From an uncultured Peptococcaceae bacterium (GTDB lineage: Bacteria; Bacillota; Dehalobacteriia; UBA4068; UBA4997): a DNA stretch of 64,000 nt. The stretch covers positions 60,637-124,636 of the forward strand of contig CBCTTQ010000001.1 in NCBI GenBank assembly GCA_965149945.1, given 5' to 3'. The notes under the pieces are model-generated. The model saw only the letters and a list, made by a program, of their open reading frames with translations. It made no database searches and was not told the DNA's origin. Positions 24,760 to 63,768 of the stretch are shown here, in pieces (the first letter of the stretch is position 1; each line of letters opens with the position of its first letter). Both the position numbers and the translations under genes were made by a program.

Positions 24760-25356
24760 CTATTTTTTCGATGTTTTTTTGTTGCGTGATTTTTTTACGC
24801 GTCCACTGAAAAAAACCATCAATTCCGCGGGGATCGCTACCAAAAACAATTGCCATGGGTGGTAGCGCCGGAGACAAAAATAGATCAGCGCGATAACGGT
24901 AAGAATTAGAATACCGATGATAAGGCGGTTTTTGCGGCCTTTGTTCCAGATGGAGTTCATCACCAGCAGGGTGATCAGGGAAACCGGCACTGCCGCCCCG
25001 AAAATCATCCAAATGTAATCTCCCAAAATCCAGAAAATGACAAAAACCAACAGCGCCAATGTCCAGATTCCGAACAGAGACATCAAGGTGATCATGAACG
25101 GGCTGTAGCTCAATCCCGTCTCTTCTTTGCGGGGACGCCACTGAGATGCTTCGGTGAGGAGATCGTCCACGCTCACCTGAAAAATTTCTGCCAGTTTTTT
25201 CAGCACGGCGGCGTCCGGCAGACTTTCTCCCCGTTCCCATTTGGAGACACTCTTATCCGAATAATTGATTTTTTCTCCCAGTTCTGCCTGAGTCAGACCG
25301 GCAGCGGCTCGCAGCCGAATCAGATTGCTGGCCACAATCAATTTTAGTTCTTCCAT
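24760..25356 (-). CDS. XRE-family HTH transcriptional regulator with C-terminal transmembrane domain
   Basis: N-terminal Cro/C1-type HTH (LIRLRAAAGLTQAELGEKINYSDKSVSKWERGESLPD) followed by three or four TM helices. Start placed at the ATG at 25356 (MEELKLIV), which has a GAGAGG RBS. Confidence 0.7.
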   Translation of the reverse strand: MEELKLIVASNLIRLRAAAGLTQAELGEKINYSDKSVSKWERGESLPDAAVLKKLAEIFQVSVDDLLTEASQWRPRKEETGLSYSPFMITLMSLFGIWTLALLVFVIFWILGDYIWMIFGAAVPVSLITLLVMNSIWNKGRKNRLIIGILILTVIALIYFCLRRYHPWQLFLVAIPAELMVFFSGRVKKSRNKKTSKK

Positions 25357-49176: not shown

Positions 49177-51117
49177 TTATTTTACCTGTCCGCCGGGAAG
49201 GATGCTGGCGGGGACTTCCAGCACTTCCATTTCCCCGTTATGAGAGGCTGCCAGAATCATACCCTGGGACTCGATGCCCCGCAGCTTGGCGGGTTTCAGG
49301 TTGGCCACCAGCACCAGCTGCTTGCCCACCATTTCTTCGGGGGTGTAACGCTGGGCAATGCCGCTTACTACGGTGCGGGTTTCGGCGCCTACCTGCACTT
49401 CCATTTTCAGCAGTTTATCGGCTTTTTTCACCTTTTCACATTGCAGTACTTTGCAGACGCGGAAATCGATTTTGGCAAAATCCTCAATGGTGATTTCCGG
49501 TTTGATTGGTTCGAATTGTTTGGCGGCTTCCGCTTTGGCTTTAGCGGCGTCTTCCTCCGCCCACAATTTCTCCATTTCCGTCAAGTCGATTCTGGGGAAG
49601 ATGGGGTCGCCGCGGTTTACTTGAATATCCGCGGGGAATCCGCCCCATTTCAGGCTGTCCCAGGTTTTCACCTCTTCATGACCGACCAGTCCCATCTGCG
49701 CCCAGACTTTGTCCGGGGTGGAGGGCATGGTAGGACCGATGAGCACGGTGATGAAACGGATCACTTCCGCCAGATTATAAAGAACTGTTTGAAGTTTTTC
49801 TGTTTCGCCGGCTTTATTTAATGCCCACGGCGCGCAGTCGTCGATGTATTTGTTGGCTTTGCTTACCAGTTTCCAAACTTCGGAGATGGCGCCCGCCACG
49901 TCCGCTTTGTCGATGTAGGCGGCCATATTGTCGGGGGTGGCTTCCGCCAGCGCTTTCAGTTCGGCGTCAAATTCCGTTTCTGTGCCGGGGGCGGCGACAC
50001 GACCGCCACAGAATTTCTGAATCATGGAAGTGGTGCGGGAGATCAAATTGCCATAGTCATTGGCAAGATCGGTGTTAATGCGATTTACCAGAGCTTCTTC
50101 CGAATAAACGGCGTCCATGCCGTAGGCCATTTCTCGCAGCAGGAAGAAGCGAATGGCGTCCACGCCGTAGCGTTCTGTCAAAATCTTCGGGTCGACTACA
50201 TTGCCTTTGGATTTGCTCATCTTGCCGTCACTCATCAACAGCCAGCCGTGCGCCACTACTTTTTTCGGCAGCGGGATATCCATCGCCATTAGCATAATGG
50301 GCCAGATGATAGAATGGAAGCGAATGATGTCTTTGGCCATCAGGTGAATGTCGGCGGGCCAGTAAGTTTGATACAATTGATCGTGGTCGGTGCCGTATCC
50401 CAGGGCGGAGATGTAGTTGATCAGGGCGTCGAACCAAACATAGACCACATGTTTGTGGTCAAAGGGGACTTTGATGCCCCAGTCGAAGGTAGTACGGCTG
50501 ACGCATAAATCGTCCAGTCCTTGTTTGACAAAGTTGATCATCTCATTGCGGCGGGATTCCGGTTGGATGAAGTCGGGGTGGCTTTCGATGAATTCCAGCC
50601 AGCGGTCGGCGTATTTGCTCATTTTGAAGAAATAACTTTCTTCCTGGGTCAGTTCCACCGGGCGTCCGCAGTCGGGGCAGGTGTGGCCTTCGCCCAGCTG
50701 CCGCTCGGTGAAAAAGGTTTCGCAGGGAGTGCAGTACCAGCCGGAATATTGGGACTTGTAGATATCTCCCTGATCGTAAACTTTTTGGAACAGATTTTGC
50801 ACCACTTCTTCATGACGTCGGTCGGTGGTGCGGATGAAGTCGCTGTATTCAATGTTCATCAATTTCCAGAGATCTTTGACGCCGGAGACAATTTCGTCCA
50901 CAAACTCTTTGGGGGTTTTGCCGGCTTCGGCGGCTTTGCGTTGAATTTTCTGACCGTGTTCGTCGGTGCCGGTGAGAAAATAGGCGTCATAGCCTTGGAG
51001 TTTTTTGAAACGGGTGATGGTATCGGCAGCCACGGTGGTATAAGCATGGCCGATGTGCAAATTATCACTGGGGTAATAGATGGGGGTTGTGATATAGAAT
51101 TTCTTTCTTTCTGTCAT
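49177..51117 (-). CDS. metG: methionine--tRNA ligase
   Basis: 646 aa. HIGH (..YYPSDNLHIGHAYTTV..), KMSKS, Zn-knuckle CPDCGRP, and a C-terminal tRNA-binding (EMAP-like) domain. GGAGGAA RBS. Confidence 0.95.
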   Translation of the reverse strand: MTERKKFYITTPIYYPSDNLHIGHAYTTVAADTITRFKKLQGYDAYFLTGTDEHGQKIQRKAAEAGKTPKEFVDEIVSGVKDLWKLMNIEYSDFIRTTDRRHEEVVQNLFQKVYDQGDIYKSQYSGWYCTPCETFFTERQLGEGHTCPDCGRPVELTQEESYFFKMSKYADRWLEFIESHPDFIQPESRRNEMINFVKQGLDDLCVSRTTFDWGIKVPFDHKHVVYVWFDALINYISALGYGTDHDQLYQTYWPADIHLMAKDIIRFHSIIWPIMLMAMDIPLPKKVVAHGWLLMSDGKMSKSKGNVVDPKILTERYGVDAIRFFLLREMAYGMDAVYSEEALVNRINTDLANDYGNLISRTTSMIQKFCGGRVAAPGTETEFDAELKALAEATPDNMAAYIDKADVAGAISEVWKLVSKANKYIDDCAPWALNKAGETEKLQTVLYNLAEVIRFITVLIGPTMPSTPDKVWAQMGLVGHEEVKTWDSLKWGGFPADIQVNRGDPIFPRIDLTEMEKLWAEEDAAKAKAEAAKQFEPIKPEITIEDFAKIDFRVCKVLQCEKVKKADKLLKMEVQVGAETRTVVSGIAQRYTPEEMVGKQLVLVANLKPAKLRGIESQGMILAASHNGEMEVLEVPASILPGGQVK

Positions 51118-51415
51118 AACAGTTCCTCCTTCTGTTGGTTATCCGCGGGGTGAGCGGCAAAAAAAAACGCCCCTCTCTAGGGACGATGAAATCGTGGTAC
51201 CACCCTGGTTCGCTTTTGAGAAAGCCTCAGCGGATTGAAGTCCTCGGCGAATAACGGCGCCTGCCGTCCGCGGTTACGACCCCTGGGCGGGGATTCGCCG
51301 CGACCGCTCCCGAGCCATGTTCCCCTTTTTGTCCGCGGGAGGTTTCAGCTCCTCTCCCTCTCTGTAGCGGCACGCCAAAGGTACTCATCTCGTTCGCTGC
51401 GTTTTAGCATAATCT
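51118..51415 (-). promoter_or_regulatory. T-box riboswitch leader of metG (Met specifier)
   Basis: Minus-strand RNA carries the T-box motif AGGGUGGUACCACG (plus 51208-51193), followed by terminator CGUCCC-uagaga-GGGGCG and a U9 run. Stem I region has GA/AGUA elements and an AUG codon (..GGGGAACAUGGCU..). Confidence 0.8.
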
Positions 51416-52182: not shown

Positions 52183-52248
52183 ACGAATTGGTTTGGGAGG
52201 CATTGGCGGCTTTGGAACATTGATCCTGTTTCCTGTAACAGACAAAGA

Positions 52249-52279
52249 AAACCCGACATTCCGAAGGAGCGTCGGGTTT
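52249..52279 (-). terminator. terminator downstream of the ferritin gene
   Basis: Minus strand: AACCCGAC-loop-GTCGGGTT followed by TTCTTTGTCTG. Confidence 0.45.
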
Positions 52280-52304
52280 TTCATTTGCATAAGGGGGAAA
52301 GGGA

Positions 52305-52817
52305 TTACAGCGTCAAAGTCGGAGCGGAATAGACGCGAGCCGCTAATTCTTGGTCCAACATATAGAGCGCTTTGGCGTCGGTGCCGAACAAATCGTATTT
52401 TTTGATTAAATCTTCGGCGGTTTTTTCTTCTTCGCCTTGTTCTTTGACGAACCAATCCAAAAACTGCATGGTACGAAAATCTTTTTCTTCATAGGCCGCG
52501 CCGTAGATGGTGTTGATCAGTTCGGTCACGTATTGTTCGTGTTCCAGACCGTAACCCAGCACTGTTTTGACATCGGTCAATTCTTTATCGGGTTTGGCAA
52601 TGGCTTCCAAGGTGGGTTTGTGGCCGTTGTTCTGCAGATATTCCAGGAATAACACGGCGTGATCCCGTTCTTCCTGCGCCTGGATTTTGTACCAATTGCC
52701 GAAGCCGTCCAGTCCTTCATCATAGAAGAAATTAGAAAAATCCAAATACAGATAGGCGGAGTAAAATTCTTTGTTGATTTGTGTGTTGATCAATTCCGCT
52801 ACTTTGGCGTTTAACAT
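52305..52817 (-). CDS. ftn: non-haem ferritin
   Basis: Start at the ATG at 52817 (MLNAKVAELINTQINKEFYSAYLYL, AGGAGG RBS). Ferroxidase-centre residues E..E..H..E..QEERDHA pattern. Confidence 0.9.
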   Translation of the reverse strand: MLNAKVAELINTQINKEFYSAYLYLDFSNFFYDEGLDGFGNWYKIQAQEERDHAVLFLEYLQNNGHKPTLEAIAKPDKELTDVKTVLGYGLEHEQYVTELINTIYGAAYEEKDFRTMQFLDWFVKEQGEEEKTAEDLIKKYDLFGTDAKALYMLDQELAARVYSAPTLTL

Positions 52818-52862
52818 GAAAATACCTCCTTTGACTGATGGTGATCGAGTTCTGATGCTTCT

Positions 52863-52906
52863 ATTATATCGGAAAAATATTTTTCTCTCTGTAGAAATTT
52901 CCACAG
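52863..52906 (-). promoter_or_regulatory. ferritin promoter: -10 TATAAT plus 16-bp CRP/FNR-type palindrome centred near -41.5
   Basis: Minus strand: TATAAT at 52868-52863, with no recognisable -35. Palindrome CTGTAGAAATTTCCACAG at 52889-52906 (half-sites TGTAG/TGTGG, 6-bp spacer) sits 20 nt upstream of the -10. Confidence 0.4.
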
Positions 52907-53541
52907 AATCCGCTCTTCTCAGAAAATTTCTTTCGTTGGTTGTCGCTCTTTTTTTCGCGCGAAATCACCGCGGGCGCTTTCGGAGGAACTCGTGTTTTTT
53001 TTTGGTGGGAAAAATGAAAAATATAAGCATTTTGGGTATAGATATTCGTTGTTCGGGGTGTTATCTCCGCGGCGGCAGGGACGGCGGAGTCCTTGCGTTG
53101 CTGTTGTTCTGTGAAAGAGTCATGGAAATTAAGGAATTTTTCAGAATATTCAGGGTGTTTCTTTTACAAAATAATGATTCTCTATTGAGAAAAAAGGATA
53201 AAGAAGCGCTCATAATGAGGATATGTTCCGTATTTTTTTAGACTTTTTTGGGGAAAATGGAAGAAATTTTATGAATACGAAAAAGGAATTTACCAATGCA
53301 AAAAAGGTATCCTTTTTCTGTTTGGAGCGTCTTGCATGAAAAAGGAGTTTATGGTATTTTATTACTATGATTTTCAGCGGGGCGATGAGAGAAATGTAAG
53401 ATTTTTCTGCCGCTGAAAAGAGTTCTGTATGCATCATTCATTTTTGGGAAAAAACTTTCTTACTGTGCCGCGGCGCTGTTTTCGGTCGAAATTAAAGAAT
53501 CGCGGCGCTTTGAAAAACACCGAGAGAAAGGAGAGGAATAA

Positions 53542-54096
53542 ATGGGCAAAGAAGAATTATTGGAAAAATTGCTGCGTTCTTATGAAAGCAGTTTCGATGT
53601 TTTTCCGTCCTATCAGTTGGGCGATGCTTTTTTTGACGCTTATGCCGCCTTTGATATGACCGGCGCCAAATACGTCCTTTCCAAAAAAGCCGAGCTTTGG
53701 CGGGTACAATGCTATGAGCATGCTTTTTTCCGTCTGCGGGATGTGCTGACGGCCGACGATGTGGCGGCTTTTCGGGAACAGATTATCGACCGCATTGAGC
53801 CGGAGCTGGTGCGGCGCGGGCAGCCGTTGCCGCCTCCCGACCATATGTATTCCTATGTGACGGGGATTTTTTTGTGTGACCGTATTACGCCGGAAGCGGA
53901 AAAGGCGGCGCGCGCCTTCCGTTACAATAAAAATTATCGTCTGACCTTTCGCGGCTATACCCAGGCAAGGTTATTGGTGTTTGATTTCAGCACGGGTCGC
54001 CTGTTCGGCAACGGCGCCGCGCGGAAATTAAAAAAAGGATACCGAAAAATCGTCCCCGCTTTTTTTGCTGAAGAAGAAGGGGAAAGCGTTTCTTAA
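53542..54096 (+). CDS. hypothetical protein (184 aa)
   Basis: Strong RBS GAAAGGAGAGG before the ATG. No recognisable family. Confidence 0.5.
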   Translation: MGKEELLEKLLRSYESSFDVFPSYQLGDAFFDAYAAFDMTGAKYVLSKKAELWRVQCYEHAFFRLRDVLTADDVAAFREQIIDRIEPELVRRGQPLPPPDHMYSYVTGIFLCDRITPEAEKAARAFRYNKNYRLTFRGYTQARLLVFDFSTGRLFGNGAARKLKKGYRKIVPAFFAEEEGESVS

Positions 54097-61473: not shown

Positions 61474-61550
61474 TGGTACGCCAGGCGGGATTCGAACCCA
61501 CGACCTTTTGGTTCGTAGCCAAACACTCTATCCAGCTGAGCTACTGGCGC
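61474..61550 (-). tRNA. tRNA-Arg (anticodon ACG)
   Basis: Minus-strand cloverleaf GCGCCAGUAGCUCAGCUGGAUAGAGUGUUUGGCUACGAACCAAA..GGGUUCGAAUCCCGCCUGGCGUACCA with encoded CCA. Anticodon loop CUACGAA. Confidence 0.85.
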
Positions 61551-61615
61551 GCGATACTCTGTTTATAAGGATTCGCTGCTTTTGGAGAAATTCCTGCCTA
61601 AACAGAGTATTTTTT

Positions 61616-61710
61616 TGGCGGAGAGCAAGGGATTCGAACCCTCGATACAGCTTTTGAACCGTATACTCGCTTAGCAGGCGAGCGCCTTCGACCGACTCGG
61701 CCAACTCTCC
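61616..61710 (-). tRNA. tRNA-Ser (anticodon GCU), type II with long variable arm
   Basis: GGAGAGUUGGCCGAGUCGGUCGAAGGCGCUCGCCUGCUAAGCGAG..GGGUUCGAAUCCCUUGCUCUCCGCCA. Anticodon loop CUGCUAA. Confidence 0.85.
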
Positions 61711-61750
61711 ATGTTTAAAATCCTCTCTGCTGTGCCGCGCCAAAACTGTT

Positions 61751-61839
61751 TGGCGGAGAGGATGGGATTCGAACCCATGACACATTACTGTGCGACGGTT
61801 TTCAAGACCGCTCCGTTATGACCACTTCGGTACCTCTCC
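61751..61839 (-). tRNA. tRNA-Ser (anticodon UGA), type II
   Basis: GGAGAGGUACCGAAGUGGUCAUAACGGAGCGGUCUUGAAAACCGUC..AUGGGUUCGAAUCCCAUCCUCUCCGCCA. Anticodon loop CUUGAAA. Confidence 0.85.
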
Positions 61840-62817: not shown

Positions 62818-63768
62818 TCATAAATCTTCGGCGATTTTTTCCAGTTTGCGCAGGCGGTGGTTGACGCCGGACTTGGATAAGGGCGGTTGAAACATCTCAC
62901 ACAATTCCTGCAAAGAGGATTCCGGATTTTCCAGCCTTAGACGGGCTGTCTCCGCCAGCGGCGGCGGCAGCTGATCCAGACCGATTTTTTTTGCGATTTT
63001 TTCTACTGCCAGCAATTGGCGGGTACCGGTATTGACGATTTTGTTGGTATTGGCGATGTCGCAGTTATAGGCGCGGTTGGCGGAGTTGGAGAGTTCTTTG
63101 TATACTTTGACGTTTTCCAATTCCAGCAGCGCCCGATGGGCGCCGGTCAAATTCAGGAAATCGCTGATGTTTTCACTTTCTTTCAGATAGACCACAAACT
63201 GCCCGCGCCGTTCGTTGGTTTTGGGTGAGAGGTTGTAATGTTTCAGCAGCAGGCTGATCAGGGCGGCATGAACGGCGTCGTTGCAGACAACTTCCAGATG
63301 GTAGGATTTTTTTGGGTCGCTGATAAAACCGCCGCCCAAAAAGGCGCCTCGCAGATAGGCGCGGTAGCAGCATTCCCCGTGAAAAACACTTCGCAAATCT
63401 GTCAAAGAACAGGGCTCCCGCCCCGCGGACCAGGGATTGCCGTCGGGCAGACGGCGCATCAGATCCACCATTTTTTCTACTTTTTCTTGGGGCGGCAGCC
63501 GCAAGGTATAGAGGGTGTTTTTTCGCAAATGGCTGGTTTTGTGCAGCATCATTTCCGCTTCCATACCGAAAATCTCCCGCGCGAAACGGAAATATCGTTT
63601 GGCGATGGCGATGTTGGCGGTGGTAGCGGTGGCGCCCAGATGGCCGCCGAATCCAAAGGTAATGTTGCCGCTCATCCGCAAAAAAGAAACAAACTCCACC
63701 CGATTACAGCAGGCGCGGCTGGTATTGACATGGGTCAGTTGTTCCTTGACCTCGGCTGAAAAAGACAC
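62818..63768 (-). CDS. whiA: sporulation/cell-division transcription factor WhiA
   Basis: 316 aa. Two LAGLIDADG-like repeats (..GAFLGGGFISDP..) and a C-terminal HTH (..LQELCEMF..SKSGVNHRLRKLEKIA). Confidence 0.9.
   Translation of the reverse strand: MSFSAEVKEQLTHVNTSRACCNRVEFVSFLRMSGNITFGFGGHLGATATTANIAIAKRYFRFAREIFGMEAEMMLHKTSHLRKNTLYTLRLPPQEKVEKMVDLMRRLPDGNPWSAGREPCSLTDLRSVFHGECCYRAYLRGAFLGGGFISDPKKSYHLEVVCNDAVHAALISLLLKHYNLSPKTNERRGQFVVYLKESENISDFLNLTGAHRALLELENVKVYKELSNSANRAYNCDIANTNKIVNTGTRQLLAVEKIAKKIGLDQLPPPLAETARLRLENPESSLQELCEMFQPPLSKSGVNHRLRKLEKIAEDL

Follow-up and report, generated by a model that had tools for sequence, protein, structure and literature searches.

How is the ferritin gene of the window (the whole 64-kb stretch of DNA that was analysed) transcribed, when its promoter has a perfect -10 hexamer but no -35 element? 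Ferritin control in Firmicutes is usually framed in terms of Fur and PerR, and model Firmicutes use PerR or Fur. The original prediction had proposed that a near-perfect 16-bp palindrome takes the place of the -35 element in the class II geometry of CRP/FNR-family activators. The features of the ferritin locus are compiled in Table 1.

Table 1. Features of the ferritin transcription unit in the window, in order of transcription.
Feature	Position	Strand	Basis or remark
Near-palindrome TGTGGAAATTTCTACA, 16 bp	52890..52905	-	Sequence; predicted CRP/FNR-family dimer operator, approximately -49 to -34
Operator-to--10 spacer, 21 nt	52869..52889	-	Length invariant and sequence unconserved across the compared promoters
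-10 hexamer TATAAT, perfect	52863..52868	-	Same perfect TATAAT in 9/9 independent promoters
Predicted TSS (A), 7 nt past the -10	52856	-	Inferred from the position of the hexamer
RBS AGGAGG	52825..52830	-	Sequence
Ferritin gene, non-haem bacterial ferritin, 170 aa + stop	52305..52817 (ATG 52817-52815)	-	Pfam PF00210
Terminator-like hairpin CCCGAC(loop)GTCGGG, then TTTTCTTTG	52243..52276	-	Sequence and terminator scan

The assignment of the gene product relies on a precomputed Pfam match to the identical protein and on an NCBIfam non-heme ferritin match (99 bits, E = 2e-28); more than 7500 homologues were found in a protein search. A 199-aa open reading frame beginning at GTG 52904 was discarded as a longest-ORF artefact, the homologues all being 170 aa long. 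The hairpin and T-run directly 3' of ferritin indicate a single-gene unit, and the scanner also called this hairpin on the plus strand, 3' of csp. Elsewhere in the window, a T-box leader (Rfam RF00230, 110 bits; 51176-51406, minus strand) was found 5' of the methionyl-tRNA synthetase gene metS (49177-51117), together with selA, coding for selenocysteine synthase (337-1746), a cluster of three tRNA genes (61477-61839) and whiA (62818-63768), these last three all on the minus strand. The genes rapZ and cofD cluster with whiA; since ferritin lies beside rapZ-cofD in relatives and whiA is present in the window, the region is loosely syntenic. The T-box leader and whiA, along with SpoIVA in relatives, support an assignment of the genome to an uncultured member of the Clostridia/Bacillota. 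At a distance of 27 kb from ferritin, the window encodes an XRE-type HTH protein of 198 aa (24760-25356, minus strand) with an N-terminal HTH and three to four predicted membrane helices, which is 60% identical to the product of the gene directly 3' of ferritin in L089 (3653-4252). HTH_3 genes coding for 199-201 aa occupy this position in L096 (3728-4333) and L099 (3835-4434), and the L096 copy is 81% identical to that of L089.

In line with the claim that the -10 stands without a -35, no -35/-10 pair was returned by the promoter scanner anywhere in 52200-53600, the best TTGACA match at spacings of 16-19 nt from the hexamer (52868-52863) was 3/6, and the TG of an extended -10 was absent. The palindrome was confirmed in place of the -35 (52905-52890), with the gap to the hexamer counted as 21 nt. 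Read as TGTGG-AAATTT-CTACA, TGTGGAAATTTCTACA is complementary in seven of its eight pairs (with a G/A mismatch at positions 5 and 12) and fits a two-fold symmetric 5-6-5 (16-bp) operator architecture. The predicted TSS would give a 5' UTR of 39 nt and would place the palindrome at -49 to -34, with its centre at -41.5.

The 21-nt spacer contains a perfect 14-bp palindrome of its own (GAAAAATATTTTTC, 52872-52885, minus strand), which is missing from all relatives and is therefore probably due to chance in an A/T-rich stretch, a second operator specific to the lineage being the other possibility. Six of the nine compared sequences (the window at approximately 52915-52930 on the minus strand, L084, L085, L089, L096 and L034) have a short element, ATTCTC / TTCTGAGAA, located 5-15 nt 5' of the main palindrome. 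This element belongs to a 23-bp palindrome (TTATTGAGAAAAATTCTCAATAA) in L089, resembles a CodY box at 12/15 positions in the window, and may be the site of a second regulator. The intergenic region between ferritin and the divergent DUF8052 gene (53542-54096) is unusually long (724 bp, 52818-53541), and only its proximal 90 bp are used by the ferritin promoter; the remainder holds a GC-rich hairpin at 53075-53096 and gave no Rfam match.

Seen in this one sequence, the palindrome is not beyond chance, because 53 palindromes of 16 bp with at least 7/8 complementary pairs were counted in the window, against about 29 expected from Markov-simulated sequence. An exact-sequence search was likewise not significant (at least two matches in 18 of 100 shuffles). 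Among the 53 palindromes, TGTGGAAATTTCTACA is the only one with a TATAAT 21 nt away. The significance of the palindrome derives from the conservation of both its sequence and the 21-nt spacing in nine independent promoters, described below.

For footprinting, the contigs carrying the closest ferritins (P0002-P0008, 84-90% identical) were compared. In six lineages (L084; L085/87/88; L089-91; L092; L093-95; L096-98), TGTRGAAnnTTCYAC(A) is located exactly 21 nt before a perfect TATAAT, with TGTGGAAWWTTCCACA as the consensus operator of these relatives. The lineages differ in spacer, flanks and 5' UTR length, that is, the distance to the start codon, and also in the neighbours of ferritin, which are cstA-DUF8052 and csp in some lineages and pgi-rapZ-cofD and an XRE gene in others. 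The palindrome is absent from L099/L100, although their ferritin is 84% identical, and from the lineages with ferritins of 79-80% identity (P0010, P0011, P0015); it is missing in all lineages examined at 80% ferritin identity or less. In L171 (about 2040-2152), with a ferritin of 80% identity, we observed an extended -10 (TGGTATAGT) with a Fur-box-like sequence (AATCGTTATCATTTATT) just 3' of it, and this promoter type suggests that ferritin control differs among neighbouring lineages. The best 80 ferritin loci from GTDB species-representative genomes (72-76% identical) have unrelated promoters, and in many of them ferritin is part of an operon behind desulfoferrodoxin or rubredoxin; they were of no use for direct footprinting and later yielded L034, L083 and CRP-like genes beside ferritin.

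The same design recurs in more distant Clostridia: TGTTGAAAATTCAACA, 21 nt and TATAAT precede ferritin-containing operons in L034, L083 and L177, and the spacing is 21 nt in all nine independent promoters. L034, an Acutalibacteraceae MAG, has an operon coding for a 4Fe-4S ferredoxin-like (Fer4) protein and ferritin, and in L083 a 2-hydroxyacid dehydrogenase gene and ferritin follow the identical palindrome and spacing. Mean information content was 1.63 bits in the palindrome and 2.0 bits in the -10, compared to 0.56 bits in the spacer and 0.64-0.71 bits in the flanks. A usable -35 or a TG extended -10 was found in none of the ten aligned promoter sequences (best -35 match at most 3/6 at spacings of 16-19 nt). 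In 575 kb of non-metagenomic sequence, all but one of the matches to TGTNGAANNTTCNACA (at most one mismatch) have a TATAAT at exactly 21 nt. The class II geometry of the original prediction would follow from the invariant distance to the -10 in nine promoters, which gives -41.5 if the TSS lies at the usual distance, and the near-perfect palindrome is a conserved element.

A phmmer screen of all compared loci, with E. coli CRP and a CRP-like protein encoded beside a metagenomic match as queries, revealed several CRP/FNR genes. In L034, a gene coding for a 219-aa CRP/FNR protein (Pfam cNMP_binding and HTH_Crp_2) is divergent from the Fer4-ferritin operon, and TGTTGAAAATTCAACA, 21 nt and TATAAT lie in the intergenic region. 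A 75% identical homologue of this regulator, P0203, led to L177 (GCA_017468385.1) through its protein sequence alone, not through the motif; its gene is divergent from an operon coding for a Fer4 protein, a flavodiiron protein, desulfoferrodoxin, ferritin, rubredoxin, a BFD-like ferredoxin and a ZIP transporter, and TGTTGAAAATTCAACA, 21 nt and TATAAT are found once more in the 85 bp between the two. In neither L034 nor L177 does the operon contain hcp, the first gene being that of the Fer4 ferredoxin-like protein. The L034-type regulator family has more than 6800 homologues, of which the best 120 are all at least 70% identical, and those named among these 120 are annotated as 'Crp/Fnr family transcriptional regulator' of Clostridia or Ruminococcaceae MAGs. 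In the family alignment, three cysteines (Cys28, Cys119 and Cys123) never vary and two more (Cys11 and Cys89) hardly do, the recognition helix reads EVDRSGLSAEISK, and Arg-Ser stands at CRP positions 180 and 181. The conserved cysteines suggest a metal- or Fe-S-based sensor. The best solved relative is the T. maritima CRP-family protein 1o5l, which we take to be TM1171, whose gene adjoins hcp (TM1172).

Genes of a second CRP/FNR subfamily, with the recognition helix AREVxxR, were found 5' of ferritin on the opposite strand in other Clostridia lineages with different operator sequences (L010 1668-2324, L028, L019 1194-1859, L043, L060 707-1396). The regulator gene is directly divergent from ferritin in L010 and L028, and L019 shows the same arrangement with a desulfoferrodoxin-ferritin operon; L043 and L060 have a further gene after the regulator gene, with ferritin more than 1 kb away. 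The pairing of a CRP/FNR gene with ferritin seems to be recurrent in Clostridia.

Of the site scan and regulator listing that had been proposed for the genome, the part covering the 64-kb window yielded TGTGGAAATTTCTACA as the sole high scorer of the PWM (26 bits, at most 13 elsewhere) with no second site, and no CRP/FNR-family gene (Pfam on 40 plausible ORFs; phmmer with E. coli CRP and the L148 protein). No such gene was found in about 70 kb from the closest relatives either. A metagenome-wide scan for the palindrome followed by 20-22 nt and TATAAT gave 66 loci, most of them fortuitous and from environmental contigs of low GC content; the spacings of 20, 21 and 22 nt were represented by 16, 25 and 25 matches, respectively, so that 21 nt was not favoured overall. 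Useful information came solely from L148, L152 and a few recurrent groups. L148 and L152 carry TGTAGAAnnTTCTACA sites (TGTAGAA type) directly beside CRP/FNR-family genes: the L148 site, TGTAGAATTTTCTACA, is separated by 22 nt from an extended -10 and precedes the gene of a CRP/FNR paralogue (32% identical to the L034 regulator, with the same DRSGLS helix), and the L152 palindrome is flanked by a CRP-like gene on one side and a MATE transporter gene on the other. The combination TGTGGAAnnTTCCACATCCCT...GTGATATAAT, with a spacing of 21 nt and an extended -10, is common to two groups of metagenomic contigs (L112, L120, L154 and L103, L116, L125, L139, L159); the gene that follows codes for a 440-aa protein in one of them and for an unrelated GHKL-ATPase-like protein of 668 aa in the other. 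Perfect matches to the GG/CC form have a spacing of 21 nt in seven sequence families, of 22 nt in one and of 20 nt in none.

Among characterized and predicted systems, HcpR of C. thermocellum (HcpR2 branch) offers several likenesses. Its predicted site, nTGTTGnAnnTnCAACAn, lies 5' of frdX-hcp and of hcpR (PMC1274295, Table S1, profile 5) and is likewise a 16-bp palindrome with TGTNG-N6-CNACA arms (tTGTTGtAttTcCAACAg). It agrees with the sites of L034, L083 and L177 at 12/12 specified positions, including the half-site TGTTG-N6-CAACA, and with the window site at 10/12, where the symmetric position 4 deviates (G instead of T, T instead of A). C. thermocellum HcpR has Ser at CRP position 181 (PMC1274295, Rodionov et al. 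2005), and its Arg180 and Ser181 are shared by the L034-type family, which is linked to the design in other genomes. Moreover, hcpR is divergent from the ferredoxin-like frdX, an arrangement of regulator and Fer4 gene that is alike in L034 and L177. HcpR-type regulators act as activators (PMC1274295, PMC12915319). The window differs in that position 4 of its half-site is G/A, not T, and in that its target is a lone ferritin gene, not frdX-hcp; neither hcp nor a regulator gene is present in the window, and frdX is missing near ferritin. This divergence at position 4 between the window clade and the sites linked to L034-type regulators suggests that the cognate protein may be a paralogue. No experimental study of the L034-type family was found in the literature; searches with the half-site sequence and keywords gave nothing relevant, and the HcpR literature was productive.

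Compared to class II CRP/FNR promoters (E. coli, -41.5; B. subtilis Fnr, TGTGA-N6-TCACA), the ferritin promoter is alike in the symmetric 5-6-5 site replacing the -35, in the fixed distance to the -10 that would correspond to the predicted -41.5 and in the TGTG/CACA core of the window-clade consensus. It departs from them in having G in place of A as the fifth base, in conserving the inner GAA/TTC and in tolerating R at position 4. The CRP/FNR assignment made originally has gained the divergent regulator genes beside the same design in L034 and L177 and the HcpR half-site match. Ferritin belongs to the same target class as the ferritin and oxidative-stress genes that Fur and PerR control in Firmicutes, likely in the same context of iron sequestration and oxidative stress. 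In contrast to those systems, and as had been claimed, no B. subtilis-type 7-1-7 box (TGATAATnATTATCA or TTATAATnATTATAA) was present with up to three mismatches in 52818-53541, and the architecture implies activation by a CRP/FNR protein, not derepression; additional Fur or PerR control via a divergent box may exist. DnaA boxes (TTATNCACA), CodY, cre, lux box and PadR- or BlaI-type boxes were considered and rejected because of half-site mismatches at conserved positions.

The palindrome might alternatively be the operator of a repressor (Rex, or a MarR-, PadR- or ArsR-type protein) that blocks the -35 zone, with the perfect -10 and the A/T-rich upstream DNA sustaining basal transcription. Palindromes overlapping promoters are often repressor sites, and Rex boxes (consensus TTGTGAA-N4-TTCACAA, in a 16-18 bp layout) resemble the ferritin site in overall length and in their TGTG...CACA arms; the relatives' form, TTGTGGAAAATTCCACAT, is off the Rex consensus at 3 of 14 specified positions. 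The window site, however, deviates at 5/14, and the conserved core is GGAA/TTCC in all relatives where Rex has GAAN/NTTC. The ten aligned promoter sequences show no usable -35 or extended -10, and steric repression does not require a strictly invariant 21-nt spacing; the regulator genes adjoining the same design belong to the CRP/FNR family, and the published HcpR-type regulators are activators. We consider a repressor unlikely. An activator of another family, such as the membrane-anchored XRE-type protein described above, was judged quite improbable. Dimers of XRE-type HTH proteins recognize palindromes and, like lambda cI, are capable of activation from around -42, and orthologues of the window protein are encoded directly 3' of ferritin in several relatives. 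Yet L099 and L100 keep the XRE gene beside a ferritin gene that has no palindrome, L034, L083 and L177 have the palindrome design with no such adjoining XRE gene (two of them have a CRP/FNR gene), and the XRE gene of the window has no comparable palindrome in front of it.

There is very little to be said for inverted Spo0A boxes (0A box, TGTCGAA) on a σA promoter with an over-long -35/-10 spacing like that of spoIIG. Promoters of the spoIIG type have a 22-bp spacing, the relatives are spore formers (SpoIVA is encoded in L096), and the half-site TGTGGAA agrees with TGTCGAA at 6/7 positions; none of the ten promoter sequences, however, has the C of the 0A box at the one deviating position, position 4, where G, A or T is found, Spo0A sites are typically tandem and do not form a tight 7-2-7 inverted repeat, and the gene neighbourhood favours CRP/FNR. 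A functionless palindrome that arose by chance in A/T-rich promoter DNA, as the abundance of palindromes in the window and the non-significant exact-sequence search would allow, is extremely improbable: sequence and spacing are kept in nine independent promoters despite unconserved surroundings and different genomic contexts, and on these comparative sequence data the chance reading is effectively refuted.

Since the same palindrome and spacing occur in related gut Clostridia, where this design adjoins a CRP/FNR-family regulator gene, the palindrome is in all likelihood a genuine site for an activator of known type. Conservation, regulator adjacency and the lack of a Fur or PerR box support the class II CRP/FNR reading, most likely with an HcpR-like stress-responsive activator, and the ferritin promoter is thus probably an activator-dependent σA promoter at which an HcpR-like CRP/FNR dimer acts from TGTGGAAATTTCTACA. 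We infer activation rather than repression because all ten sequences lack a -35 and an extended -10, the spacing does not vary and HcpR proteins have been published as activators. In such a mechanism, σA RNA polymerase would meet a perfect -10 but neither a -35 nor an extended -10; a dimeric CRP/FNR-family regulator would occupy the palindrome, overlapping the -35 position at about -41.5, and would recruit polymerase through direct contact. The regulator in this genome would most likely be a local member, or a paralogue, of the conserved cysteine-rich HcpR-like CRP/FNR subfamily of Clostridia, and its signal would be O2, NO, redox state or iron. The presence of the same design on operons coding for ferredoxin-like, flavodiiron, superoxide reductase, rubredoxin and ferritin proteins suggests that ferritin is switched on together with the defence against O2, NO and ROS, in which case it would capture iron freed from damaged Fe-S proteins.

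A more far-reaching and rather tentative possibility is that the uncharacterised 219-aa CRP/FNR protein is a master regulator that, in the place of PerR or Fur, drives the whole O2/NO/ROS defence set of strict anaerobes (flavodiiron protein, superoxide reductase, rubredoxin and ferritin) via TGTNGAAnnTTCNACA, 21 nt and TATAAT. This protein is 70-78% identical across many gut Oscillospirales/Clostridia, has four to five conserved cysteines and possibly holds an Fe-S cluster in its effector pocket. In this genome as in several related uncultured gut Clostridia, ferritin seems to be under positive control of the CRP/FNR type, shared with O2 and NO detoxification genes, and the rigidity of the operator-promoter design would allow its use as a pattern in regulon searches. 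The finding introduces no new principle and extends, with ferritin as a target, a type of regulon that was predicted by comparative genomics in 2005; the candidate regulator family, abundant and highly conserved in gut anaerobes, would provide an entry to how major gut commensals sense oxidative and nitrosative stress.
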